DNA from: Candidatus Saccharibacteria bacterium oral taxon 488
Lineage (GTDB): Bacteria > Patescibacteriota > Saccharimonadia > Saccharimonadales > Saccharimonadaceae
Direction of reading: 5' to 3'
Length of the DNA: 32,000 nucleotides
Assembly (NCBI GenBank): GCA_010202845.1
Contig: CP047921.1
Span: 360,001-392,000 of the forward strand
Made by a program: the position numbers and the translations under genes. The notes under the pieces are model-generated. The model did not search any database. It saw nothing but the letters and a program-made list of their open reading frames with translations, and was not told where the DNA came from. This document shows positions 1 to 26,099 of this stretch, one piece after another (position 1 is the first letter of the stretch; each line of letters begins with the position of its first letter).

Positions 1-25
1 ATGACACGCCATTGTGCCATCTCAG

Positions 26-96
26 TGGATGTGACGGGACTTGAACCCGCAAGGCGCATCGGTTTTTAAGACCTTGCCTTCTTACCTAGCACACCC
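26..96 (-). ncRNA. Alternative reading: a self-contained 71-nt tRNA-like domain
   Basis: GGGTGTG (90-96) pairs 7/7 with CACATCC (27-33), including G3:U70. AAGGC/GCCTT closes a 20-nt loop next to the T arm. No D arm or anticodon arm can be drawn, so this is not a canonical tRNA. Confidence 0.35.
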
Positions 97-381
97 TGTG
101 ATTCTTTTCCGGATTACCGGTCGGCGAATCAAGCCGGGGGCGGACGGACGCCCTTTTGCTGACGCGGGGTCAGCGGGTTTCGGGGTCGCACAAACCCCGA
201 CCGTCACAATATAATAGCTAGTTCATCTTACCACACGCGTGGCAAGCCCACGAGTTTCCCCGTGGGACCGAGCTAATGTTATTTTTCTGGGAGCAGTGCT
301 TACACCGCACCCAGATTGGGTTCGTCCAGCCTGACGCACTAGACGAGCCTTCGTAGTTGCCGAACAAGGGTTTTCACCCCC
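26..381 (-). ncRNA. Candidate tmRNA (ssrA-like) structured RNA with a 3' tRNA-like domain
   Basis: On the minus strand there is a T arm GCGGG-TTCAAGT-CCCGT (34-50). It is followed by the acceptor 3' strand CACATCC (27-33) and discriminator A (26); CCA is not encoded. A distal 5' strand GGGGGTG (375-381) pairs 6/7 and includes G3:U70. A P2-like helix AAGGCTCGTC (342-351) pairs 9/10 with GATGCGCCTT (51-60), which abuts the T stem. Total length is 356 nt. An A-rich single-stranded stretch lies about 100 nt from the 5' end, and several GC hairpins follow. No canonical ...ALAA tag frame was found. Confidence 0.5.
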
Positions 382-401
382 TCCCCGCCGCGGTTGCGGC
401 G

Positions 402-495
402 ATAGAAAAGAGCTAATCCTCTTATCAGACCATGCCTTTGTGCGAAGCATAGTCAGGGCTTGGTATTATTCGCAATACCTCGCCAGTATTAGCTC
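402..495 (-). promoter_or_regulatory. Leader hairpin plus U-tract downstream of cassette copy 1 (attenuator or short RNA)
   Basis: GAGCTAAT (488-495 in reverse complement) pairs with ATTAGCTC (410-417 in reverse complement), enclosing about 70 nt that contain inner hairpins such as GGTATT/AATACC. TTTTCTAT follows immediately on the minus strand. Confidence 0.4.
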
Positions 496-515
496 CGTGA
501 ACAAAAGCAAGTATA

Positions 516-557
516 TATATATCAATAATAGCAAGCCATGTCAATAGTTTTTGTCAA
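516..557 (-). promoter_or_regulatory. Promoter cassette copy 1
   Basis: Minus strand reads TTGACA (552-557), 7 nt, TTGACA (539-544), 17-nt spacer ending in TGA, then TATATA (516-521). The cassette starts 7 nt after the helicase stop codon. Confidence 0.7.
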
Positions 558-563
558 GATTAC

Positions 564-3500
564 CTACGCTACCTCTGTTAATAAATCCTCCTCAAACTGC
601 AGCATCCCCTTATAATCCGCTGAATACCCAGAGATATCCGGTAGTTCCAGCATGGTGATTTTCCGCCAGACGACATTGATTAGCCGGGCAAATTCAGCCA
701 ATTCCTCCTTAGAGAACGTGTCCTCCAGGCTGAGGATGCCGCCAGTTTTCATGTCCGGCTCGACGAATTGCAGGCGGGCGCCGGTGAAGGTGAAATTGCC
801 ATAATCGCGTGATGACGTGACTAAGAGTTGATAAAACATCAGCTGCTGGCGGTATTTGTGGAGCTTGATTCTTTCGTAATCAGACGCGCCCTTCCAGGAG
901 TGCGATGGCTTGCCGGTCTTGTAATCGGTCACGAATATGGTTTTATTATTCTTATCAATATCAGCGACGTCCAGCTTGCCGGTCAGGCGCGCGCCGCTAA
1001 CGACGACGCCTTGATGAGCGAAATCGAGTTCCGCGAGCTCCGTGTCACGAAAATCAGACGATTTGGCGTCCAGAAACGCCGTCAGCGCCGCCGTGCCTTT
1101 GTCTAGATATAGCTCGAAATCGTCGGGCAGCAGGTGCTGGGTCTCGAGCGATGTGCGGAAATGTTGGAGGATGCGCTCGGCAGGCGGCAGGCGGTGGTCA
1201 GCGCCTAGCAGATTGTGCAGCTGCTGGAGACTGGCGTGAATGGCGGTGCCGTAGCTGGCGGCGGGATTTTTGGCGGACGGAAAGCGCAGCAGATTATTCA
1301 ACAAAAAGTTCTGCGGGCCGCCGCGCGAGACGTCGAGGAAGTTATTCAGATGCGTAATGGAAAGTTTGTAGGTTTCTAAGGTCGGCGCTAGTACATCCTT
1401 GAGCTCCGCGGTAATCGGCGCGCTCAGCCGCGTGCTCCAGTCGGTTTGCGCCATAGTGATTTGCGCCGCGGGCGTGTCGGCGGCGGGGATAATCGTCGGT
1501 GTGTGGGCGGTCAGGAAGCTGGCGATCATGGTGTCGCTACCGGCGTCGTTGGTCTGGGAATAGGTCATGGTCAGGGTGGTCTTGGCGCGGGTCATCGCTA
1601 CGAAAAATAGCCGCAGCCGCTCGTCGTAGCTGGCGCCGGCGGGCTGGAGCTGGAGGTTGGCGGGATAGCGAATCAGCCGCGAGCGCGAGCGGACTTTCTC
1701 GCCCCACGCGCTGTCGATTGCCCCAATGACGAAAACGTGCGGGAACTCCAGGCCTTTGGATTTGTGGGCGGTCATCAGGTTGATGGCGCCACCGAGGGTG
1801 CTGGCCTGGGGACGGATGTATGTCAGGCGGGTTTTGGTCGAGCGGTGCAGGTCGATGAACTCTAAAAAGTCCGCCAGCGTCGGTATTGCGTCGGTGACGC
1901 GGTCGCGTAATTTTTGGCGCAGTGTGCGCAGGCTCTCGAGCGTGGTTAGATAGGCGTCGGGGTTTTGGGCGAGGTTATCGGGCGAGAAGTAGTGGGCGGC
2001 GAGAGAGGCGGGCGAGGAGCTTTCCTCAAAGCTCCGTACAGCGATTGCAGCCCGAGCGTCCCTGGACGCCCGGCGCGTAAAGAGGAGCTTTGAGGAAAGT
2101 TCCTCGCCGGTTGATTGCAATCGCTGTACGGAGTCGATTGGAGTAATTCCGGCGTCTATCTCCAATCCCAACAACTTGTCCAACTGCTCCTCCAGCGGCA
2201 GATTTGGTACGTCCTTTGCCCGCTCCAGCAGCCACTCGCCAAACGGCCGAAAGGTGCTGTTCGCCAGCATACTCTCCAGCCACAGCTGCCGATTTTTATA
2301 GGCATGGAGGCTGAGCTGCCAGATATCCAGCGCCGAAAAGCCGAACGCCGGATGAGCGATGAACTCTGGCAGCAGGCTGTTAGCGACATCGAGATTATTC
2401 TGATGAATCGCCACGACGACCCGCGCCAGCTTGTCCAGCGCCTGAATGATATCTTGCTCTAAAATATCGTCGTGCCGCTCGTAATTGACAGCCAGATTCT
2501 GGCGGTACAGATATGGCAGCAGCTCGATCAGCTCCTTGTGATGGCGGGCGATGACGGTGATGTGCGCTGGGTCTTCGCCGCGTTTGATCAGTTCGGCAAT
2601 TTGCCGGGCCACCCCTGCCCGTTCCTCGCTTACCGAGGCAAATTCCTGGATTTCAACCCGCGCGCCGCTACCAGACGCGTGCGCGGTCAATTGCTTTGAC
2701 AAGCCGTCAATGGTGTTTTCTAAGCGATCCATCCCTTGGGTGATCACTCCGCGCGCCGCCGTCAAGATGTCAGCCGCCGAGCGGTAATTATCCGCCAGCA
2801 CGATGATTTTCGGATCGTGGTACTGCTGGCGGAAGCGCTGGATATTGCCAACATCGGCGCCTTGAAAACTGAAAATCGCCTGATCATCGTCGCCGACAGC
2901 CATGATGTTGGGATTGTCCTCATCGCCAGTCAGGTCAAATAACAGACGCAGCTGCGCCAGGTTGGTGTCCTGAAATTCGTCGACCATGATGAATTGATAT
3001 TGCTCCTGGAGGTTGGCGCGCAGTTCGGGGTGGGACTCGCAGGCTTGAATGACGGACAAAATCATGTCGTCGTAATCAAACAGCGAGCGCTCGGCCAGCA
3101 CGTCACCATATGCTTCGTAGACGTCAATGGCGGCGGATAGTTTCTCGCTGGCGGCAAAATCTTTCAGGATGAACTCGCCGGCGGCGTTCTTTTCGCACCA
3201 CTTGTTTTTCCAAGCGGTCAGCGGCTTGGTGGAGTTGGCGTCGATGGCCTCTTGGGCCGCGTGAGCGATGCTGAGCGCCAGAACTTGGGCGTACGGGGTG
3301 ATGGAGGACGGCAAATTGGCAGAGGTTTGGGCGGTGATCGCAGTGTTATTTGGCGCTGAGCTGGCGGTATCTCCAGAGGGTTCTGTGATGCCTCCCTCGC
3401 CGATTCTCTCGGCAATCTTCTCTGCCAGCGGCGCAAATAACTCAACGGTTTTTTTAGAAATCTTGGCCGCAAATACCTGCTGAATGTCGGAGGCAATGCC

Positions 3501-4037
3501 AGCGATGACACGCTGATTATCCGCCGTAATCGCCCGCAGTTCCGCCGGCGTGAGGCCGCTCTGCTTGAACTCAGAAATAACTCGGATTAGCTCGCTAGTG
3601 TAGACGAACTCGCCGTTGTTTTTAACGCTCAGCGGATTACGCCAATCAAGTCCCTCGAGAATTTCCGTCACAATTTGGTGCTGCGTCAGCTCATCCGCCG
3701 GCTGAGCGTCAGCGCCGTGAAAAAAATACTGCCGGTGCTGATTGATAATCTCCGTGCCGAAGCTGTGAAAGGTGTGAATGGCGATTTTATAAGCGTCCTC
3801 GCCGATGATCTGGCGCAGGCGCAGGCGCATGTTGGCGGCGCCGCTCTCGGTAAATGTCAGGCACAAAATACTGTCCGGCAGCGTGTCAGTCTGGCGCAAA
3901 ATCTGGGCGGTGCGCATGCTCAGCAGCTCGGTCTTGCCCGTACCCGGCCCGGCGATCACCAGGAGCGAGCCGTGAATATAGTCAACTGCCTGGCGCTGAT
4001 TGGCGTTCAGCTTGGCGTAGCGAGTTTGAAAATCCAT
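564..4037 (-). CDS. UvrD/PcrA-family helicase fused to a C-terminal PD-(D/E)xK (RecB-type) nuclease
   Basis: ORF of 1157 aa. Walker A motif is AGPGTGKT near the N terminus, and UvrD-type motifs are present (DEFQDT, VGDDDQAIFSFQGA). The C terminus carries GKLDVADID...VTDYKTGK...QQLMFYQLL, a D / D-x-K / QxxxY nuclease signature. Confidence 0.85.
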   Translation of the reverse strand: MDFQTRYAKLNANQRQAVDYIHGSLLVIAGPGTGKTELLSMRTAQILRQTDTLPDSILCLTFTESGAANMRLRLRQIIGEDAYKIAIHTFHSFGTEIINQHRQYFFHGADAQPADELTQHQIVTEILEGLDWRNPLSVKNNGEFVYTSELIRVISEFKQSGLTPAELRAITADNQRVIAGIASDIQQVFAAKISKKTVELFAPLAEKIAERIGEGGITEPSGDTASSAPNNTAITAQTSANLPSSITPYAQVLALSIAHAAQEAIDANSTKPLTAWKNKWCEKNAAGEFILKDFAASEKLSAAIDVYEAYGDVLAERSLFDYDDMILSVIQACESHPELRANLQEQYQFIMVDEFQDTNLAQLRLLFDLTGDEDNPNIMAVGDDDQAIFSFQGADVGNIQRFRQQYHDPKIIVLADNYRSAADILTAARGVITQGMDRLENTIDGLSKQLTAHASGSGARVEIQEFASVSEERAGVARQIAELIKRGEDPAHITVIARHHKELIELLPYLYRQNLAVNYERHDDILEQDIIQALDKLARVVVAIHQNNLDVANSLLPEFIAHPAFGFSALDIWQLSLHAYKNRQLWLESMLANSTFRPFGEWLLERAKDVPNLPLEEQLDKLLGLEIDAGITPIDSVQRLQSTGEELSSKLLFTRRASRDARAAIAVRSFEESSSPASLAAHYFSPDNLAQNPDAYLTTLESLRTLRQKLRDRVTDAIPTLADFLEFIDLHRSTKTRLTYIRPQASTLGGAINLMTAHKSKGLEFPHVFVIGAIDSAWGEKVRSRSRLIRYPANLQLQPAGASYDERLRLFFVAMTRAKTTLTMTYSQTNDAGSDTMIASFLTAHTPTIIPAADTPAAQITMAQTDWSTRLSAPITAELKDVLAPTLETYKLSITHLNNFLDVSRGGPQNFLLNNLLRFPSAKNPAASYGTAIHASLQQLHNLLGADHRLPPAERILQHFRTSLETQHLLPDDFELYLDKGTAALTAFLDAKSSDFRDTELAELDFAHQGVVVSGARLTGKLDVADIDKNNKTIFVTDYKTGKPSHSWKGASDYERIKLHKYRQQLMFYQLLVTSSRDYGNFTFTGARLQFVEPDMKTGGILSLEDTFSKEELAEFARLINVVWRKITMLELPDISGYSADYKGMLQFEEDLLTEVA

Positions 4038-4043
4038 GAGTCA

Positions 4044-4052
4044 ATTGTAGCA
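4044..4052 (-). promoter_or_regulatory. Extended -10 for a leaderless helicase mRNA
   Basis: TGCTACAAT on the minus strand lies 6 nt upstream of the ATG at 4037. There is no Shine-Dalgarno sequence. Confidence 0.6.
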
Positions 4053-4076
4053 CGCTGGCACAGGCGCTGGTAACAA

Positions 4077-4085
4077 TGGTAAAAT
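4077..4085 (+). promoter_or_regulatory. Extended -10 for a leaderless 158-aa ORF
   Basis: TGGTAAAAT lies 7 nt upstream of the ATG at 4093. It is divergent from the helicase promoter. Confidence 0.55.
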
Positions 4086-4092
4086 AGTAGGT

Positions 4093-4569
4093 ATGCACGA
4101 TGAACGGGCACTCGCGGCGCTGATTGATGATCAGTTTGGACTGACGGTCGAGATCCAGTCGGTTGTGCTGCCGATGAGCGATGTCAGCCGTACGGCGCAG
4201 GCGACGGTGGTGCTTGATAGGACGGGTGAATTGTTGGCTTACATCACAGCGCGGGCCATCATGACGCTGGGCGATGTCAAGCGGTTGGTACGGCGAATGG
4301 GCTTGCGGCCAGAGCGATTCGTACCGCCAAAGCACCAGCCGAATTACTTTGACGATGTGGCGACCGAGAAGTTTCAGGCGGTTTTTCCGGGGATGAATGT
4401 GACTTCGCCGGATGACTTGATATATTATCGGACGCTGGTGTCGTATAATCCAGCCCTGGTCGTCATATCAGAGGTCAAGCGCGGCGAAATATATCAATTT
4501 GACCCGGACGCTCGCGGCGGCTATCGTGTCGGCGCGCGATTACATTACAAAAGGAGCGAGGCAATATAA
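4093..4569 (+). CDS. Hypothetical protein (158 aa), translationally coupled to the P-type ATPase
   Basis: Intact ORF with a leaderless-type promoter. Its TAA stop overlaps the ATPase ATG (TAATG at 4567-4571). I recognise no motif. Confidence 0.6.
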   Translation: MHDERALAALIDDQFGLTVEIQSVVLPMSDVSRTAQATVVLDRTGELLAYITARAIMTLGDVKRLVRRMGLRPERFVPPKHQPNYFDDVATEKFQAVFPGMNVTSPDDLIYYRTLVSYNPALVVISEVKRGEIYQFDPDARGGYRVGARLHYKRSEAI

Positions 4570-7016
4570 TGCGAGATTATCTGGATATTATCAAGAGAAA
4601 TTTACTGTCGCCGATTGTGCTGGCGATTTTCTTGCTGGCCGGGGCGCTGATTTATGTGCGTGAGTACCGGGACGCTTGGTTTATCTCGGTGGTGATCGTG
4701 GTCAATTCGCTGATCGGCATCGTTCAGGAAATTCGTGCCAAGCGGGTGCTGCATCGGCTGGAGCTGATGAGCGCGCCTCGGGCGCGGGTGCTGCGTGATA
4801 GCCAGGCGGTGGAGGTGCCGTATGATTCGCTGGCGGTTGGCGATGAGATTATCCTACAGGCTGGCGATGAGCTGCCGGCGGACGCGGCAGTGACGGTGTC
4901 GAAGGGCTTGGAACTGAATGAAAGCATGCTAACTGGCGAGTCGGCGGCGGTTGAGAAAGCGGTTGGCGATACGGTGCTGGCGGCGACCACGGTACTGGCG
5001 GGCGAAGGTACGGCGCGGGTCACGGCGGTCGGCGACCAGACGAAGGCCGGCGCCATCAGCCAAGTCCTCAAGCGCTACAAACCGGAATTGACACCGCTGC
5101 AGGTGGCGATTTGGCGAGCAATCACCTTCTTGACATACGGCGCAATTGTGTTAGCGATATTGATTTTTACCGTGTATTATTTCTCGGGCGATGACGTGGT
5201 GATTATCCTCAAGACGATTACTTCGGCGGCGGTAACGGTGGTGCCAGAGGGGCTGCTGCTGGCTAGTTCCCTGCTGCTGGCGTTCGGCTCGCTGCGGCTG
5301 GCGCAGGCCAAGGTGCTGCCGCAGAAATTGGCTGCGATTGAGGCAATGGCGCTGCTGAATTTGCTAGCGGTGGACAAGACCGGCACGCTGACCAGCGACG
5401 AGGTGACGCTGGAGCGGGTGGTGGCGTTTGATGAGATGATGCCGGCAAATTCGATCACGGATACCTCAGAAAAATCCGCATCCCAAGCGACCGCAGACAG
5501 CCCAGCGTGTAGATTTTCGGAGATAAAACTATCTGAAGCTGCTTCGGACGTTGCCGAGCTAGCTGCCCTCGTTGCCCATGAAACCAGCGGCGGCAATATC
5601 ACCGGGCAAGCGATCCTCGCAGAAATCACGCCGCCCAAGCACGCGGAAATCATCAAGGTAATGGCTTTTTCTTCGGCGCGCAAGATGGCGGGCGTTCGGG
5701 CCAAGGTCGACGGCACGGTGCGGACACTGATGATGGGGGCGCCGGAGTTTGTAGCTAAATTAGCGCCGGTTGACGCTATGACGCAGCGCCAGCTGGACGA
5801 GTGGGCGGACAGCGGACTCAGGGTGCTGATGCTGGCGGAATTTGATGATGAAACGACGAAATTAAAGGATTTGCCAGATAGTTCTGGGCGGGCGATTGGC
5901 GCGGTGATTTTGCGTAATTCCCTGCGCGACGGCGTGATTGATACGGTCAAGTTCCTCCAGGAGCAAGGCGTGGTCATTCGCGTGATTTCCGGCGATAATC
6001 CGCGCACTGTTCGGCACATCGCGCGCCAGGTGGGTATCGCCAACCCAGATAAGGCCATCCTCGGCTCGGCGCTGGCGGGTCTCAGCGACAAGGCTTTTAA
6101 CAAGGCGGCTGATGAACACACAATTTTTGCCCGCGTGCTGCCAGAGCAAAAGGAGCGGCTGATCGCTCATTTCAAGCAGTCCGGCAAGTTCACCGGCATG
6201 GTCGGCGACGGCGTCAACGATGCGCTGGCGCTGAAAAAATCCGACCTCGGCGTGGCGATGTATGCGGGTGCTCCGGCGTCGCGGCGGGTGGCGGACATAA
6301 TTTTACTCAACAATTCGTTCACGTCCCTGCCGATCGGTATGAAGCTGGGTAATCGGATTATGCAAGCGATTGAAGTGATTGCTACCCTGTTCTTTCACAA
6401 GATTATTTACGGCGTGGTGTTGCTACTCAGTACCATGCTGGTCGGGCTGAATTATCCGTACGCGCCGCGACACATCACCTTTCTCAATATTTTCCTGGTG
6501 ACCATGCCGACGATTATGTGGACGCTGTTTCCGCCGCGTCCGCGCCATCGGGTCAATCCGGCGTATTTCTGGCGAGACACCCTGCAGGCGGTGGCGCCAA
6601 TCGCGCTACTAACGGGCCTGACGGTGGCCTTTACCTATTGGTCGGGTGTGACGCTGCATCCACATCAAGCGGCCGAGGCAGCGACGATGACGGTTCTGAC
6701 AGCCACGTTCTTTGGGATTTATCTGGTGTTTTTGGTCGGGCCGATGCTCGGCGTAGTCCTCGACAAGCGGGCGCACCTGGCGCGGACGCTGTATATGGCG
6801 GGGGTGCTGTTCGTGACCTTGGTGAGCTTTGGTATCGAGCCACTCAGGCAGTTCTTTGACTTTACTATGCCAAATATCACCCTGCTCTGGCCGGGCATCG
6901 CCGTAGTCGTTCCCGTCGCCCTGGCCCAGTGGTGGCTGGCTCGCCGTGCTGGTCGGAAGTTCGCTGATATGGTAGAGGCGGCCGACGAGCGGACGAAGAC
7001 GAACCGCCCAGAATGA
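4569..7016 (+). CDS. Cation-transporting P-type ATPase
   Basis: 815 aa with TGES (MLTGESAAVEK), the phosphorylation motif DKTGTLT, the hinge motif GDGVNDALALKKSDLGVAM, and multiple transmembrane segments at both ends. Confidence 0.9.
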   Translation: MRDYLDIIKRNLLSPIVLAIFLLAGALIYVREYRDAWFISVVIVVNSLIGIVQEIRAKRVLHRLELMSAPRARVLRDSQAVEVPYDSLAVGDEIILQAGDELPADAAVTVSKGLELNESMLTGESAAVEKAVGDTVLAATTVLAGEGTARVTAVGDQTKAGAISQVLKRYKPELTPLQVAIWRAITFLTYGAIVLAILIFTVYYFSGDDVVIILKTITSAAVTVVPEGLLLASSLLLAFGSLRLAQAKVLPQKLAAIEAMALLNLLAVDKTGTLTSDEVTLERVVAFDEMMPANSITDTSEKSASQATADSPACRFSEIKLSEAASDVAELAALVAHETSGGNITGQAILAEITPPKHAEIIKVMAFSSARKMAGVRAKVDGTVRTLMMGAPEFVAKLAPVDAMTQRQLDEWADSGLRVLMLAEFDDETTKLKDLPDSSGRAIGAVILRNSLRDGVIDTVKFLQEQGVVIRVISGDNPRTVRHIARQVGIANPDKAILGSALAGLSDKAFNKAADEHTIFARVLPEQKERLIAHFKQSGKFTGMVGDGVNDALALKKSDLGVAMYAGAPASRRVADIILLNNSFTSLPIGMKLGNRIMQAIEVIATLFFHKIIYGVVLLLSTMLVGLNYPYAPRHITFLNIFLVTMPTIMWTLFPPRPRHRVNPAYFWRDTLQAVAPIALLTGLTVAFTYWSGVTLHPHQAAEAATMTVLTATFFGIYLVFLVGPMLGVVLDKRAHLARTLYMAGVLFVTLVSFGIEPLRQFFDFTMPNITLLWPGIAVVVPVALAQWWLARRAGRKFADMVEAADERTKTNRPE

Positions 7017-7060
7017 GCGGGCGAATAGGTCTCTAATTAGTAACACAACTATCTCCAATG

Positions 7061-7170
7061 AAAATAGCCCACCGAATGAGCTCAAGCTGTATGCGGGTTT
7101 ATTCAACCCGAGAGATAGAAATCCTACCTCAATCAGATTGAGCGCATACGGCGGGCTATTTTCGGTGGGC
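7061..7170. terminator. Complex inverted-repeat structure in a convergent intergenic region
   Basis: AAAATAGCCCACCGAA (7061-7076) faces GGGCTATTTTCGGTGGGC (7153-7170). Together they enclose GTATGCG/CGCATAC (7089-95/7143-49) and two inner hairpins, GGTT/AACC and CTCAAT/ATTGAG. On the minus strand the outer stem is followed by CTATTTTC. Confidence 0.45.
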
Positions 7171-7190
7171 GTTTAGCCCATTGGTTTAGT

Positions 7191-7469
7191 TTAAGAGATC
7201 TTCCTCCTCCCATATTCAATTCTCCCAAAGAGAGACCACACGAGCAGGACCACGACGGCCACCTCCCCCGCTACGAGGAATGCCAGGGTCTCTTGGCCCC
7301 ATCGATACTTGCCCTCGACACCGATCACCCATCCCGTAACATGGGTGACGATGGTGGCCACGTACAGCAGCGCCCCGGCCCAGAATGGGCCGGCCTGCAT
7401 CACCACCGCGGCGACGACGGGAAGAATGATGACAAAAGAGATGAGAGCGATGATCTGCCAGCTGTTCAC
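7191..7469 (-). CDS. Small membrane protein (92 aa, about 3 transmembrane segments), hypothetical
   Basis: GTG start preceded by GGAAAGGA 7 nt upstream. Three hydrophobic stretches. Driven by cassette copy 2. Confidence 0.6.
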   Translation of the reverse strand: MNSWQIIALISFVIILPVVAAVVMQAGPFWAGALLYVATIVTHVTGWVIGVEGKYRWGQETLAFLVAGEVAVVVLLVWSLFGRIEYGRRKIS

Positions 7470-7485
7470 GGTAGATCCTTTCCGA

Positions 7486-7540
7486 GAAAAAGCTCAAAGC
7501 TAAAGGGCGACTTCCGCCCTTAAGACTATAGCCTTGAGCT
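7486..7540 (-). promoter_or_regulatory. Leader hairpin plus U-tract downstream of cassette copy 2
   Basis: Minus strand reads AGCTCAAGGCTA...AGGGCG-GAAGT-CGCCCT...TAGCTTTGAGCT, followed by TTTTTCT. It begins about 5 nt after the predicted transcription start and lies upstream of the RBS. Confidence 0.45.
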
Positions 7541-7545
7541 AGAAG

Positions 7546-7663
7546 CTGATATATATATCACTAATAGAATAAAATGTCAATGGGTTTTGTCAAAAATGTG
7601 ATATAATATCTTCTCTCACCCCTGTTATGATCATGGACAACTTTTTATAGAAAATAGTAACCG
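7546..7663 (-). repeat. Intergenic repeat copy A (about 118 nt) containing cassette 2
   Basis: Aligns by eye with 9042-9148. Shared blocks are GGTTACTAT, GATCrTAA, GGGGTGAnAGAA, ATATTAyAyCACATT, the tandem TTGAC boxes, TGATATATAT and CAGC. Confidence 0.75.
7552..7593 (-). promoter_or_regulatory. Promoter cassette copy 2
   Basis: TTGACA (7588-7593), 7 nt, TTGACA (7575-7580), 17-nt spacer ending in TGA, then TATATA (7552-7557). Confidence 0.7.
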
Positions 7664-7716
7664 GTGTTTTCTGTGAGTGGCCGCCCCGCTCTCCCCGCGC
7701 TATGCTGGGTCGCTAA

Positions 7717-8628
7717 TTATGATTCGCCTAGATCTTTCGCAGCGGAGATAGTCACCGTTATCGCTCTCAAAATCGTCCGCAAATTTGCAGCGGTGATGGC
7801 CTTCGTTAGCTCATGCTTTGTCAGCGGCGCGGCGGTTTTCTGGTAAAAATAAATTGGCGCGGGGTTGTAGAACGGGTCAGTTTTAAAGGCTTTGGCGAGG
7901 TTGTTCAGGCGGCTGGCATGCGGCGTAATGTCAAATGTTCGTAAATAGCTTTGTGCTGCTTTGCCCGCGCTTTGCCAATCGAAAGATTTTTTCACGGTGT
8001 AGGTTTGGCTGACCGAATTGCCGTCATGGTAGGCGGTGAATTCGCTATGGCTGGACGGATAGACTGGCGCTCTGTCAAAGCACACGCTGCGCACCAAGTC
8101 GAGTAGTATCGGGTACATGCAGAAAAGGGCGGCGGTTGCTTGCTCGCTGGCATCAGGGATTTCAATCGTCAGTGTAATATCTATAAAATCCTCCGGCTGG
8201 TAATCAATTTCTAGCGGTGGGTTTTTGGTTGATTTGATAGCTTTTTTAGGCTTGATGGAGCGGCGATCTGCGAAATCTTTTTGACAACGAGCCAGCTGTC
8301 TAAACAATTCCGCTTCATCCCAGATGACGACGCTTGCTTTCATCTCCGCCTCGATATGGGCGACGGATTCGCGAATCATGGATAGATCAAACGGCTTTAC
8401 GTCAGCGATGACTTTTTCAAATAGCGTAATTGATTCGCCAGTAAAGAACGCGACGTCAAAAAACACGCTTGATTCAGACGTCGTGCCGTGCAATTCGCCA
8501 ACAAAGGCGCGTTCGCCGTCGGACTTTTCTACCATCCGTAAGAACCGCCGAATAACCAAGTGCTCAAACAAATGACAGACATCATGGTCGACTGGCAGGT
8601 TGTAAGCGGAATATAGTTTGTGGATCAT
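7717..8628 (-). CDS. M16 (pitrilysin/insulinase)-like metallopeptidase-fold protein, single domain
   Basis: Inverted zinc motif HLFEH at residues 19-23, and a Glu-rich RESVAHIEAE segment about 70 residues later. The start is set at ATG 8628, which has TGCTACAAT 6 nt upstream, rather than the track start at 8673. Confidence 0.55.
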   Translation of the reverse strand: MIHKLYSAYNLPVDHDVCHLFEHLVIRRFLRMVEKSDGERAFVGELHGTTSESSVFFDVAFFTGESITLFEKVIADVKPFDLSMIRESVAHIEAEMKASVVIWDEAELFRQLARCQKDFADRRSIKPKKAIKSTKNPPLEIDYQPEDFIDITLTIEIPDASEQATAALFCMYPILLDLVRSVCFDRAPVYPSSHSEFTAYHDGNSVSQTYTVKKSFDWQSAGKAAQSYLRTFDITPHASRLNNLAKAFKTDPFYNPAPIYFYQKTAAPLTKHELTKAITAANLRTILRAITVTISAAKDLGES

Positions 8629-8634
8629 GGGTTT

Positions 8635-8643
8635 ATTGTAGCA
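8635..8643 (-). promoter_or_regulatory. Extended -10 for a leaderless M16-like gene
   Basis: TGCTACAAT lies 6 nt upstream of the ATG at 8628. Confidence 0.55.
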
Positions 8644-8697
8644 GATGAGTACCCCACCTCGGCAGTTTGGCACTACCGGGGCGGGTTTTTCTCGAAC

Positions 8698-8937
8698 TCA
8701 GAAGCTCTTGAACGGAGCCTTGCTGTTCGAGGTTCCCGAGTCGCTACGGTTGGTCAGCGACCTGGGAGCGTCGGCCTTCGGGGTCGACGACTTGGAGGTG
8801 AGCATGCTGCTGATAGTGGTCTTCGGCAACGTGCTGGGAGAACCACCGAAGCCGAACCGCTGGCTACCGCTCTGGCTCAGGCTGTCGTGATGGTTCTTGT
8901 TGCTGTTCAATCCCTTTTGGGGACGTCCAGTTGCCAT
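8698..8937 (-). CDS. Small hydrophilic Ser/Thr/Gly/Lys-rich protein (79 aa), hypothetical
   Basis: The ATG at 8937 is preceded by AAAGGAG 7 nt upstream. Driven by cassette copy 3 through a structured leader of about 105 nt. The longer track ORF (to 9075) would run through the promoter. Confidence 0.55.
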   Translation of the reverse strand: MATGRPQKGLNSNKNHHDSLSQSGSQRFGFGGSPSTLPKTTISSMLTSKSSTPKADAPRSLTNRSDSGTSNSKAPFKSF

Positions 8938-9041
8938 AGTAAACTCCTTTTGGAGTCGGGCGAGAATGGACCTTCTCGCAAACGGCACATTTGACACATG
9001 GCACGAGTCAAATGCGAACCCAGTGCGAAATTGCACGAAAG

Positions 9042-9148
9042 GCTGATATATATCAATACGAGAACAAAACGTCAAGGGTTTTTGTCAACAATGTGGTGTA
9101 ATATTTCTATCACCCCCATTACGATCGCGGCGTGTTATATAGTAACCG
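9042..9148 (-). repeat. Intergenic repeat copy B (about 107 nt) containing cassette 3
   Basis: Same block order as 7546-7663. Begins 14 nt after the nrnA-like stop codon. Confidence 0.75.
9047..9088 (-). promoter_or_regulatory. Promoter cassette copy 3
   Basis: TTGACA (9083-9088), 7 nt, TTGACG (9070-9075), 17-nt spacer ending in TGA, then TATATA (9047-9052). Confidence 0.7.
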
Positions 9149-21221: not shown

Positions 21222-21441
21222 AAAAATCCTTTCTTTGATTGGTTCTTGTGTGATTCGACCGATTTGTTAACGTGCGGTAATGGAGAATCTGGTTCTTGTT
21301 TACCCAAGTTTTAATCGAGCAAATAAAAACGTCTTTGATTCTCGCACTACCAAAGACGTGATTAAAACAGTTTTGTTTCATCCCTCGGCGGCATTTTTAC
21401 ATCTGTTTTTATACAAATCGCCGCTGTCTTTGGTAATGTTC
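21222..21441 (-). promoter_or_regulatory. rplJ leader of about 220 nt with alternative terminator and antiterminator pairings (L10-leader-like)
   Basis: Promoter TGCTACAAT at 21448-21456. The terminator is ACGTCTTTG/CAAAGACGT (21329-21359) followed by TTTTTATTT. An upstream ACCAAAGAC (21426-21434 in reverse complement) is complementary to the 5' arm of that terminator. Confidence 0.6.
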
Positions 21442-21493
21442 CTTAGAATTGTAGCAGAAATGACAACGGGATGCAAGACGATTATGGGTTAAT

Positions 21494-26080: not shown

Positions 26081-26099
26081 CAAATGATTATACCACAAT

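Follow-up and report, generated by a model that had tools for sequence, protein, structure and literature searches.

A T at position -7 of the -10 hexamer is near-universal, and sigma-70 promoters require neither a conserved spacer sequence nor a conserved upstream block. Promoters of the E. coli rrnB P1 type combine a sigma-70 promoter with an extended -10 and a UP element, the consensus of which is AAAWWTWTTTTNNNAAA (PMC2412878). Here, we analyze a promoter-like cassette that occurs three times in a 32,000-nucleotide stretch of DNA (the window) from Candidatus Saccharibacteria bacterium oral taxon 488 (Table 1). On sequence grounds, the repeats are genuine: all three are copies of a predicted promoter module that is conserved across Saccharibacteria (TM7). 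The reading that we favor, at a probability of about 0.68, is that the module is a lineage-specific, strong sigma-70-type promoter with a UP-like element, which heads exchangeable units containing small ORFs.

Several observations bear on the cassette within the window. First, when the pattern was searched with a tolerance of 3 mismatches, three matches and no more were returned, all of them without a mismatch and on the minus strand, as originally predicted, and 100 dinucleotide-preserving shuffles of the window gave none. Second, the form common to the three copies, TTGACA-N7-TTGACR-N14-TGATATATA, agrees with the architecture that had been proposed, i.e., TTGACA, 7 nt, TTGAC(A/G), a 17-nt spacer ending in TGA and then TATATA, and the starts of the two -35-like boxes are 13 bp apart in 3/3 copies. 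The cores are identical at 34/42 (copies 1 and 2), 32/42 (copies 1 and 3) and 35/42 positions (copies 2 and 3), the last matching the earlier estimate of ~35. Third, copies 2 and 3 share ~65 nt beyond the core on the upstream side. The ~110-nt repeat claimed around them is present: 7546-7663 and 9042-9148 (118 and 107 nt) align with 88 identical positions and contain the shared blocks CGGTTACTA, GATCrTAA and GGGGTGAnAGAA-ATATTA. Even without the core, the upstream parts of the two copies align with a score of 52, whereas 1000 shuffles averaged 17.3 and never exceeded 42. Fourth, the cassette family ranks top among the direct-repeat families of the window, and a search of the window for TTGAC-N15-TGnTATA found no site besides the three cassettes. 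The other likely promoters on the minus strand (at 26087, 21806, 19353, 15488 and 10150) read TGnTATAAT and have no -35 box, as the claim of uniqueness had it. Copy 1 begins 7 nt past the stop codon of a UvrD/PD-(D/E)XK helicase gene (564-4037).

Table 1. Features of the three cassettes and their downstream units (positions in the window)
Feature	Position	Strand	Description
Cassette copy 1	516-557	-	Distal TTGACA 552-557; proximal TTGACA 539-544; spacer 522-538; TG 523-524; TATATA 516-521; predicted start ~509-511
Unit 1 leader	368-511	-	Three-way-junction RNA, then small hairpin
Unit 1 small ORF	218-367	-	49 aa; TTG start; CxxC-N17-CxxC
Unit 1 3' region	97-217	-	Conserved, hairpin-rich; present in loci L062, L009, L028, L044 and L052
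Unit 1 tRNA-like element	23-96	-	Acceptor stem GGGUGUG/CACAUCC with G3:U70
Cassette copy 2	7552-7593	-	Distal box 7588-7593; proximal box 7575-7580; TG 7559-7560; TATATA 7552-7557; predicted start 7545-7547
Upstream block of copy 2	7594-7663	-	Common with copy 3; …CGGTTACTA…GATCATAACAGGGGTGAGAGAAGATATTATATCACATTT
Unit 2 leader	7470-7547	-	Two-helix hairpin a few nt from predicted 5' end, then Shine-Dalgarno GGAAAGGA
Unit 2 small ORF	7191-7469	-	92 aa; GTG start; three TM-like segments
Unit 2 3' element	7056-7184	-	Long hairpin with internal three-way junction
Cassette copy 3	9047-9088	-	Distal box 9083-9088; proximal TTGACG 9070-9075; TG 9054-9055; TATATA 9047-9052; predicted start 9040-9044
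Upstream block of copy 3	9089-9148	-	Common with copy 2, by sequence alignment
Unit 3 leader	8938-9044	-	~105 nt; ends in Shine-Dalgarno AAAGGAG
Unit 3 small ORF	8698-8937	-	79 aa; hydrophilic; Ser/Thr/Gly-rich

A search of related genomes, proposed as a check with the original prediction, used an 18-base version of the cassette and gave matches in at least 120 genome stretches; among the matches listed, 74 of 120 stretches came from at least 55 Saccharibacteria assemblies at the species level. The Saccharibacteria matches are conserved far beyond what the search pattern demanded and have conserved flanks, ATATTAyAcCACATTT upstream and AGCTTTTG downstream. Their spacer sequences form several subfamilies, and the upstream block of copy 2 precedes cassettes in many other genomes irrespective of the class of the downstream unit. 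In a metagenome sample, which was anchored solely on TGATATATA…AGCTTTTG and blind to upstream sequence, all modules of the Saccharibacteria type have TTGAC(A/T/G), or TTGATG in one case, at exactly 17-bp spacing. The cassette occurs in many different genomic contexts, and its orientation relative to the downstream small ORF is kept: 97 of 98 non-redundant modules face a Shine-Dalgarno site and an ORF of at least 30 aa with a start 33-238 nt downstream (median 93), compared to 27/85 for the antisense-upstream control. Thus, the fixed, promoter-like orientation toward short downstream units that had been claimed was found, a randomly dispersed element was not and, because the module is common to several units, "dedicated expression module" is a fair description. 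These comparative data contradict the idea that the three copies are functionless leftovers of a local duplication. While copies 2 and 3 are separated by 1.5 kb and have ~110 nt in common, the recurrence of the cassette in at least 55 species-level assemblies, in many contexts and in one orientation to the downstream small ORF, makes this idea exceedingly improbable.

Like rrnB P1-type promoters, the cassette has a -35 TTGACA, a 17-bp spacer and TGn, and its A/T-rich region from -60 to -38 holds a T-tract and an A-tract that are separated by 3 nt and keep the same register. Taking the proximal box as -35, the sequence of the window cassettes is T(-51..-47)-GAC-AAAA(-43..-40), which fits the UP consensus in register (PMC2412878), while the distal half of the consensus is matched only partially, at 8-10 of 14 specified positions by hand count on the window cassettes. 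The distal TTGACA lies in this T-tract/NNN/A-tract frame, and modules without it keep the frame: in the 26 unbiased modules of this kind, T is found in 12-17 of 26 at -51..-47, A in 13-18 of 26 at -43..-40, and the A+T content of the UP-like region is 0.61 versus 0.51 locus-wide. The tandem -35, present in all three window copies, is a feature of a subfamily rather than of the module: it occurs in only 10 of 36 modules when sampling is blind to upstream sequence. Of the roles proposed for the shared upstream block, operator or UP element, the latter is supported by the UP-like layout of the upstream region; however, the TAACAGrGGTGA… sequence of copies 2 and 3 is conserved beyond what a UP element explains. 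The cassette also differs from rrnB P1-type promoters in having a -10 TATAWA with A at -7, in the second exact TTGACA inside the UP-like region of one subfamily, in having an upstream block, a spacer and a first transcribed sequence that are conserved across species, and in targeting small ORFs of unknown function rather than rRNA or tRNA.

The -10 element deserves particular attention. Among the matches listed, T at -7 was found in 0/73 Saccharibacteria cassettes (A in 70, G in 3), compared to 39/46 non-Saccharibacteria matches to the same pattern, and the housekeeping promoters of the window read TATAAT. Because this T is absent, a sigma-70 promoter scan did not call the cassettes at TATATA. 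The cassette has a perfect -35, a 17-bp spacer and TGn, but the earlier description as "near-consensus" fails at the key -7 position. An A at -7 is odd for a promoter selected for strength alone and makes another factor or a regulatory purpose conceivable. A dedicated factor, which could be an alternative sigma factor, an activator or a repressor, might read the TTGACA repeats, the palindromic TTTTGACAAAA or the TAACAGrGGTGA…ATATTAyAcCACATTT block and switch a regulon of small ORFs together. We consider this unlikely, although it has points in its favor: a -35 box and TATAWA set the cassette apart from the housekeeping promoters of the window, conservation of the spacer and upstream block extends across species and different downstream units, and the targets are all of one kind. 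However, no candidate factor was found, and the cassette is textbook sigma-70 in its -35, its spacer length and its TG. In addition, 26/36 unbiased modules have neither the distal box nor the upstream block, and the spacers are distributed over several subfamilies, which looks like shared ancestry and not like one operator.

Downstream of the modules lie, in order, a structured 5' leader, the Shine-Dalgarno site and the small ORF. The ORFs targeted are all of one kind: they have a median length of 88 aa, fall into 60 unrelated families and have no known function. Leaders and 3' elements are shared between genomes whereas the small ORFs are not, and the breakpoints of ORF replacement are at the Shine-Dalgarno site and the stop codon, ~80 nt downstream of the cassette; between the window and locus L113, the non-homologous stretch is 7172-7488. 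By eye, the 5' AGCUUUUG is able to pair with CGAAAGC or GAAAAGC in leaders of other classes. None of the window leaders and 3' elements matched an Rfam family. In unit 2, the leader is present in 18 loci, has 85% of cells paired compared to 27-58% with partners slid, and includes 6 pairs with double changes. Its ORF has a homolog in L074 only and matched no curated family, while its 3' element (-68 kcal/mol, z = -7.6), without an Rfam match, is found at ~16 loci 200-370 nt downstream of cassettes. In unit 3, the leader is 99% identical in L074, L112 and L113, and the ORF, which has no Pfam match, has 13 homolog clusters with 57-96% identity; 3' of it, with no T-run terminator between, lies a conserved gene for a 303-aa hypothetical protein (7717-8628) with 466 Saccharibacteria homologs. 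In unit 1, 18 of the 50 predicted pairs of the leader have compensatory changes (5 homologous loci), and the small hairpin overlaps the Shine-Dalgarno site and start codon (GGGGGUGAAAACCCUUG). The ORF slot is occupied by unrelated small ORFs in L052, L028, L009 and L062, and no DNA homolog of the window ORF was found in any fetched locus.

Unit 1 had been predicted to encode a tmRNA-like RNA. A 7-bp acceptor stem with G3:U70, a T-arm and a discriminator A characterize tRNA-Ala as well as the tRNA-like domain of tmRNA, and the element at the 3' end of unit 1 has such an acceptor stem, a canonical T-arm (GCGGG-UUCAAGU-CCCGU) and a discriminator A, with CCA not encoded. However, we reject unit 1 as a tmRNA gene: the Rfam tmRNA match is partial (22.2 bits versus a threshold of 47), ARAGORN made no call in the unit 1 region, and the unit consists of a leader, a 49-aa ORF and this 3' element. 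The element further differs from tmRNA and tRNA in having only ~60 nt between the acceptor strands, with neither a tag reading frame nor pseudoknots there, in a middle part that does not form a canonical D arm and anticodon arm, and in its place at the 3' end of a unit with a small ORF. Orthologs exist at other loci, one of which ARAGORN calls tRNA-Trp, and their middle part differs between loci, being Ala-like, Trp-like or neither. One other unit class is already catalogued as an RNA motif, since in other Saccharibacteria genomes (loci L029 and L012) the same cassette lies ~115-125 nt upstream of a RAGATH-10 RNA (Rfam RF03147) on the same strand. RAGATH-10 was not found in the window, and the searchable literature gave no description of its function.

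The swapping of ORFs inside conserved flanks, and the joining of one upstream gene context to another class of downstream unit depending on the species, would also fit a recombination or attachment site that bounds exchangeable units for integrases, with the promoter likeness being secondary. In locus L119 and the IMG/VR contigs L124, L129 and L133, sequences diverge right after TGATATATATA; these four junctions have four different upstream contexts, and all lead into the same element end, AAATCACnGAAA…TTACATGATA. By reading, L129 and L133 run into putative phage replication/recombination ORFs (SSB-like, ATPase-like and exonuclease-like), and L119 and L124 into an ORF resembling a tyrosine recombinase. 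The conserved multi-copy host sequence is thus apparently a junction point of putative prophages, reminiscent of tRNA genes as phage attachment sites, except that the target would be a promoter and that one junction per element was seen, leaving the crossover core undefined. Nevertheless, we regard attachment as the primary role as improbable: the replacement breakpoints are away from the cassette, a promoter, but not an attachment site, needs the exact -35/17 bp/TG geometry and the strict orientation to a Shine-Dalgarno site and ORF, no recombinase gene adjoins the window cassettes, and phage use can be secondary, as with tRNA genes.

Returning to the sigma-70-type promoter, we suggest that the housekeeping holoenzyme would bind with sigma region 4 at the -35 (the proximal TTGACA), region 3 at the TG of the extended -10 and region 2 at TATATA in the (TA)n run, while the alpha C-terminal domains would touch the T-tract and A-tract, with distal TTGACAAAA, in the A/T-rich, UP-element-like region embedding the second TTGACA. 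Transcription would begin at or beside AGC, with AGCUUUUG as the conserved first sequence. While the conservation of sequence, the orientation, the RNA structures and the turnover of ORFs are observed, we infer initiation by RNA polymerase at the cassette, high expression and a UP-element role of the distal box.

Each transcript would be self-contained, starting with a structured leader or 5' stem, continuing with one small ORF behind a strong Shine-Dalgarno site and ending in a stable 3' RNA structure, i.e., the long hairpin in unit 2 and the tRNA-like element in unit 1. Such units resemble integron gene cassettes in that a short ORF lies between conserved flanks and is followed by a long imperfect palindrome, that the ORF varies among close relatives and that the flanks recur at many loci. 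They differ in that every unit has its own promoter, that units are dispersed rather than arrayed and that no integrase adjoins them in the window; homologous recombination between the repeated flanks would suffice for the exchange. Altogether, the comparison of sequences argues that structured leader, small ORF and structured tail form a unit, the regulatory frame of which is kept among Saccharibacteria genomes while the ORF within it is swapped.

We read the cassette, a promoter-like repeat of the form TTGACA-N7-TTGACR, as a lineage-specific promoter of the sigma-70 type with an UP-like element, which would head units built to express one small protein each at a high and stable level (probability about 0.7). 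The window contains exactly three matches to TTGACA-N7-TTGACR-N14-TGATATATA at up to three mismatches; all three are on the minus strand and free of mismatches, and the pattern was found 0 times in 100 dinucleotide-preserving shuffles of the window. The architecture described in the original prediction, i.e., TTGAC(A/G) boxes with their starts 13 bp apart, then 17 nt of spacer with TGA at its end and TATATA, is seen in full. Its estimate of about 35 of 42 identical positions for copies 2 and 3 agrees with our alignment (35/42; the other two pairs of 42-nt cores give 34/42 and 32/42), and the larger repeat that it placed around these two copies aligns with 88 identical positions. Scored alone, the upstream part of this repeat reaches 52, compared to a shuffle mean of 17 and a shuffle maximum of 42. 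The claim that no other promoter in the window looks like this also stands: the other likely promoters are of the TGnTATAAT type without a -35 box, and a search of the window for TTGAC-N15-TGnTATA gave no site beyond the three copies.

Next to nothing has, to our knowledge, been learned about the transcription signals of Saccharibacteria, which are ultra-small episymbionts with reduced genomes. The search of related genomes suggested with the original prediction showed that the cassette is not private to the window. When a genome set with one member per prokaryotic species was scanned with an 18-base version, at least 120 stretches matched, at least 74 of them from at least 55 assemblies named Saccharibacteria, Nanosynbacter or Saccharimonas; because the genome and metagenome matches are an incomplete set, these and the following counts are lower bounds from an arbitrary sample, in which taxonomy follows the record titles. 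Among the matches listed, the Saccharibacteria consensus (…ATATTAyAcCACATTT-TTGACAAAAyCyA-TTGACATTTTrTTCTATTAG-TGATATATATAT-(c/t)AGCTTTTG…) is conserved far past the search pattern, and several subfamilies are visible in the spacer sequences. The 46 listed matches from other phyla, mostly Clostridia, read TGATATAAT and have flanks without conservation; their appearance is that of ordinary promoters or of chance matches. Over long stretches, the window is ∼92% identical to loci of Saccharibacteria oral taxon 488 strain 106.1.1 (CP128407) and of related MAGs.

The 450 nt downstream of the cassettes fall into recurrent classes, among them those of all three window copies. The order in each of these is cassette, conserved structured leader, strong Shine-Dalgarno sequence, small ORF and conserved 3' RNA element. 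Among the matches listed, 97 of 98 non-redundant Saccharibacteria-type modules, i.e., a cassette with its downstream unit, have a Shine-Dalgarno sequence with an ORF (≥30 aa) that begins 33 to 238 nt downstream, while an antisense-upstream control gave 27 of 85. Thus, the cassette does not behave as a dispersed repeat without consistent orientation, the outcome that had been named as speaking against the original prediction; that it is a functionless duplication is, in our estimate, extremely improbable. The module ORFs, which were picked heuristically with a few spurious picks in the RAGATH-10 class, have a median length of 88 aa (91 of 97 at ≤150 aa), form 60 BLASTP families and include 41 with a TM-like segment; among the matches listed, about 40% of them are putative membrane proteins. 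None of four window proteins and none of ten small proteins from other modules passed the curated cut-offs of Pfam and NCBIfam. The largest other unit class (at least 23 loci) has the cassette 115 to 125 nt upstream of a RAGATH-10 RNA (Rfam RF03147), followed by an ORF of 125 to 170 aa. RAGATH-10 is thus an already catalogued RNA motif within one unit class of other genomes; an Rfam search of the window found no match to it, and at permissive thresholds, Rfam returned only noise in both regions searched.

Features of the window and of fetched loci. L-numbers denote cassette-bearing loci fetched from other genomes, metagenomes and IMG/VR contigs; the last column gives the number of fetched loci, all of which were compared, that match at least 60% of the length of the part.
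Feature	Position	Strand	Description	Matching loci
Cassette copy 1	516-557	-	proximal box TTGACA	
Cassette copy 2	7552-7593	-	proximal box TTGACA	
Distal TTGACAAAA	copy 2		upstream, distal part of cassette	
Cassette copy 3	9047-9088	-	proximal box TTGACG	
Larger repeat, copy 2	7546-7663			
Larger repeat, copy 3	9042-9148			
Unit 1 leader	368-511	-	three-way junction; small hairpin at end over Shine-Dalgarno and start codon	2
Unit 1 ORF	218-367	-	49 aa, CxxC…CxxC, TTG start	0
Unit 1 3' region				4
Unit 1 hairpin-rich stretch	97-217	-	sequence conservation	
Unit 1 tRNA-like element	23-96	-	74 nt; acceptor GGGUGUG/CACAUCC with G3:U70, canonical T-arm, discriminator A	
Unit 2 leader			two-helix hairpin	18
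Unit 2 ORF			92 aa, three TM-like segments	1
Unit 2 3' element (hairpin)	about 7056-7184	-	long hairpin, inner three-way junction; -68 kcal/mol, z = -7.6	16
303-aa hypothetical protein gene	7717-8628	-	directly after 79-aa ORF, no obvious terminator between	
L10 leader	21315-21451	-	RF00557, 56.9 bits, upstream of rplJ-rplL-like ORFs	
RAGATH-10 RNA	L029 3427-3507	-	81 bits, above threshold	
RAGATH-10 RNA	L012 4565-4645	-	75 bits, above threshold	

Several lines of evidence show that the frame is conserved while the ORF within it turns over. First, the leader and 3' hairpin of unit 2 and the 3' region of unit 1 recur in more loci than the corresponding ORFs (table); among the fetched loci, the 3' element of unit 2 lies 200 to 370 nt downstream of cassettes in about 16. 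Second, in L113, a locus that is ∼92% identical to the window on both sides, the sole unaligned stretch (7172-7488) comprises the Shine-Dalgarno sequence, the ORF and ∼20 nt beyond it. Third, in related genomes, the ORF slot of unit 1 is occupied by different CxxC peptides or by small ORFs that are unrelated, and one upstream gene context is joined to differing unit classes in different species. We infer that the repeated flanks could provide homology for ORF exchange. The leader structures are backed by covariation in small sets of 5 and 27 sequences, with compensatory changes in 18 of 50 pairs across five loci for unit 1 and six pairs with double changes for unit 2. For the latter, RNAalifold gave a poor alternative fold, and pair counting was applied instead to the single-sequence fold: 85% of cells pair compared to 27 to 58% with slid partners. 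A role of this hairpin as an intrinsic attenuator is not supported, as the T-run after it is missing in several orthologous leaders (e.g., L001, L004 and L011). Unit 3 consists of a leader of ∼105 nt and a 79-aa hydrophilic protein with 13 homolog clusters among 5.8 billion proteins. The 303-aa protein encoded after it is widely conserved (466 homologs in Saccharibacteria), has no Pfam domain and gave nothing meaningful in sequence searches of PDB and NCBIfam; an H-L-F-E-H motif close to its N-terminus resembles the HxxEH zinc site of M16 peptidases. In the window as a whole, the ribosomal protein L10 leader is the only Rfam family above threshold.

Downstream of copy 1, a tmRNA-like RNA had been proposed; what we find there is a leader followed by a 49-aa ORF and, as a tail, a tRNA-like element. 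The tail has the features of the tRNA-like domain of tmRNA, i.e., a G3:U70 acceptor stem and a T-arm. However, tmRNA carries a tag frame and pseudoknots between its acceptor strands, whereas only ∼60 nt lie there in the window element. With the tmRNA model RF00023, the element reaches 22.2 bits, below the gathering score of 47; the model matches the two ends only and skips 303 of its positions. ARAGORN called neither a tmRNA nor a tRNA in the window, and Rfam gave no tRNA match. Among the orthologous elements, ARAGORN called only that in L052 (as tRNA-Trp) and no tRNA in those of L009, L062, L028 and L044. These orthologues keep the acceptor stem and T-arm while the middle varies; some are Ala-like, with G3:U70 and A73 in the window, L009 and L062, and others Trp-like, with a CCA anticodon loop and G73 in L028, L044 and L052.

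Sigma-70 promoters have a -35 box close to TTGACA, a spacer of 17 ± 1 bp, in extended -10 promoters a TG one base before the -10 box, and the -10 consensus TATAAT, in which A at -11 and T at -7 are most conserved, and the primary transcript begins 6 to 9 nt past the -10 box. Because the search pattern biases the set of cassettes that it returns, we also scanned metagenomes with an anchor solely on TGATATATA-N0-8-AGCTTTTG. Among the matches listed in this unbiased sample, the -35 box is TTGAC(A/T/G) in 36 of 37 modules and the spacer is 17 bp in all, as in the three window copies, each of which has the extended -10 TGA directly before TATATA. Past the hexamer, a (TA)n run varies in length, with AGCTT 2 to 9 nt (mostly 4 or 6) beyond, and the conserved AGCTTTTG begins 2 to 9 nt (mostly 4 to 6) after the hexamer; the conserved RNA structures begin there too, and this is where transcription would start. 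By eye, AGCUUUUG could form a 5'-terminal stem of the transcript in other leader classes, by pairing with CGAAAGC or GAAAAGC; together with the strong Shine-Dalgarno sequence and the stable 3' structure closing each unit, such a stem would serve small-protein expression.

The -10 box is the exception. TATATA has the A at -11 and, in 3 of 3 window copies, an A at -7. Among the matches listed, TGnTATA is followed by TA in 59, AA in 8, CA in 3, AG in 2 and TG in 1 of 73 non-redundant Saccharibacteria cassettes, so that -7 is A or G and T in 0 of 73, whereas T occupies -7 in 39 of 46 listed non-Saccharibacteria matches. TATAAT is the -10 of the housekeeping promoters of the window, and a sigma-70 promoter scan of the window did not accept TATATA of the cassettes as a -10. 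Hence, the label near-consensus does not hold at the position that matters most. The promoter may bind very well and open poorly, in which case it would be regulated, or it may be read by another factor. A dedicated sigma factor or regulator, for which this anomaly, the conserved spacer and the conserved upstream block speak, seems to us unlikely, though less so than the other alternatives considered here.

We read the distal TTGACA as the version of the UP-like element in one subfamily and not as a second -35 box. Stimulation by UP elements depends on the C-terminal domain of the alpha subunit, which would contact this region. The E. coli UP element has the consensus AAAWWTWTTTTNNNAAA, is A/T-rich from -60 to -38 and has subsites near -52 and -42 (PMC2412878). 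Numbered from the proximal box as -35, the window cassettes have TTTTT/TT at -51 to -47, then GAC, and AAAA at -43 to -40. In this register, the distal box accounts for some of the T-tract, all three free positions and the first part of the A-tract; the copies match 8 to 10 of the 14 specified positions, including TTTT/TT-NNN-AAA in register. Among the matches listed, the distal box is present in 78 of 83 pattern-ascertained cassettes, a frequency that the search pattern is prone to inflate, and in 10 of 36 in the unbiased sample, which has at least 36 non-redundant modules with the proximal box at exactly 17 bp. Homologous promoters show …CACATTTTTGCTTAAATTTCA-TTGACA… or are unrelated in their upstream sequence. 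In the 26 listed modules that lack the distal box, T is enriched at -51 to -47 (12 to 17 of 26) and A at -43 to -40 (13 to 18 of 26), a layout matching that of the E. coli element, and the A+T content of the region is 0.61 vs 0.51 locus-wide. A second, overlapping promoter with the distal box as its -35 was rejected because the sequences 17 bp downstream (TTGCTA, ATTCTA, GTTCTC and GTGGCT) are neither -10-like nor conserved. In L039, L060 and L061 (Eubacteriales and related MAGs), promoter-like sites share TTGACAAA(A/G)ACTATTGACA with copy 1 but have TGATATAAT or TGATATACT; TTGACA 13 bp upstream of -35 may be more general in strong promoters of Gram-positive-type genomes.

Of the operator or UP element that had been proposed upstream, the UP-like layout is borne out by the T- and A-tracts in register, while the conservation of the upstream block of copies 2 and 3 goes beyond what an UP element would account for. 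This block (TAACAGrGGTGA…ATATTAyAcCACATTT) recurs in many species before different unit classes, and the motif TAACAGAGGT(A/G) recurs about 25 to 40 nt upstream of cassettes in all contexts. On the opposite strand, the block of copy 2 reads AAATGTGATATAAT (window 7599-7607, plus strand), a perfect extended -10 of the form TRTGnTATAAT. It points away from the cassette and into the 303-aa gene, antisense at its 3' end, and may belong to a divergent promoter; other genomes have TGTGGTATTAT or TGTGGCATAAT at this place. Copy 1 begins 7 nt past the stop codon of a UvrD/PD-(D/E)XK helicase gene (window 564-600 region). In subfamily-2 loci of another genus (e.g., L001, L023 and L036), a homologous helicase frame appears by eye to cross the cassette and to end at the extended -10 TGA (…ILSEVGCSYLTKSIDILWLV*).

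In L119 (rc 2043), L124, L129 and L133, the cassette stands in four upstream contexts, and the sequence changes directly after TGATATATATA, all four loci turning into one shared element end, AAATCACnGAAA…TTACATGATA. By reading alone, the ORFs beyond the junction are phage-type in L129 and L133 (SSB-like, ATPase, RecT-like and exonuclease-like), and those in L119 and L124 resemble a tyrosine recombinase and tail proteins. From these four junctions, integrated phage-like elements appear to attach at the -10 region of the cassette; the other junction was not found within the fetched DNA. That the cassette is primarily a recombination or attachment site is improbable in our view. The units also differ from integron cassettes, in which IntI and attI adjoin an array of promoterless ORFs with attC, in having their own promoter and being dispersed; no integrase was found among the window ORFs of 1 to 12 kb.

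Each component is familiar in kind: a sigma-70 promoter, an UP element, stabilizing 5' and 3' structures and a tRNA-like element. In the searchable literature and Rfam, we found no description of the promoter module, its phylum-wide conservation or the pattern of a conserved frame with a variable ORF. We tentatively suggest, while thinking it rather less than an even bet, that Saccharibacteria carry dispersed, standardized expression slots of promoter, leader, Shine-Dalgarno sequence and 3' RNA element, within which unrelated small ORFs are exchanged and at whose promoter elements read as prophages end. If so, the slots would hold a co-expressed, fast-evolving arsenal of small proteins, perhaps directed against hosts or phages, and the TATAWA -10 and the conserved upstream block would place them under common control. 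An otherwise perfect promoter that consistently lacks T at -7 is odd in terms of promoter recognition, and in a way that can be tested. The one tool promoter for Saccharibacteria that we found in the literature is a tuf promoter, and a conserved, portable frame of promoter, leader and terminator would help genetics in these bacteria. Moreover, the frame marks, from sequence alone, small and mostly uncharacterized proteins that the cell seems built to express and that are candidates for interaction with hosts or phages.
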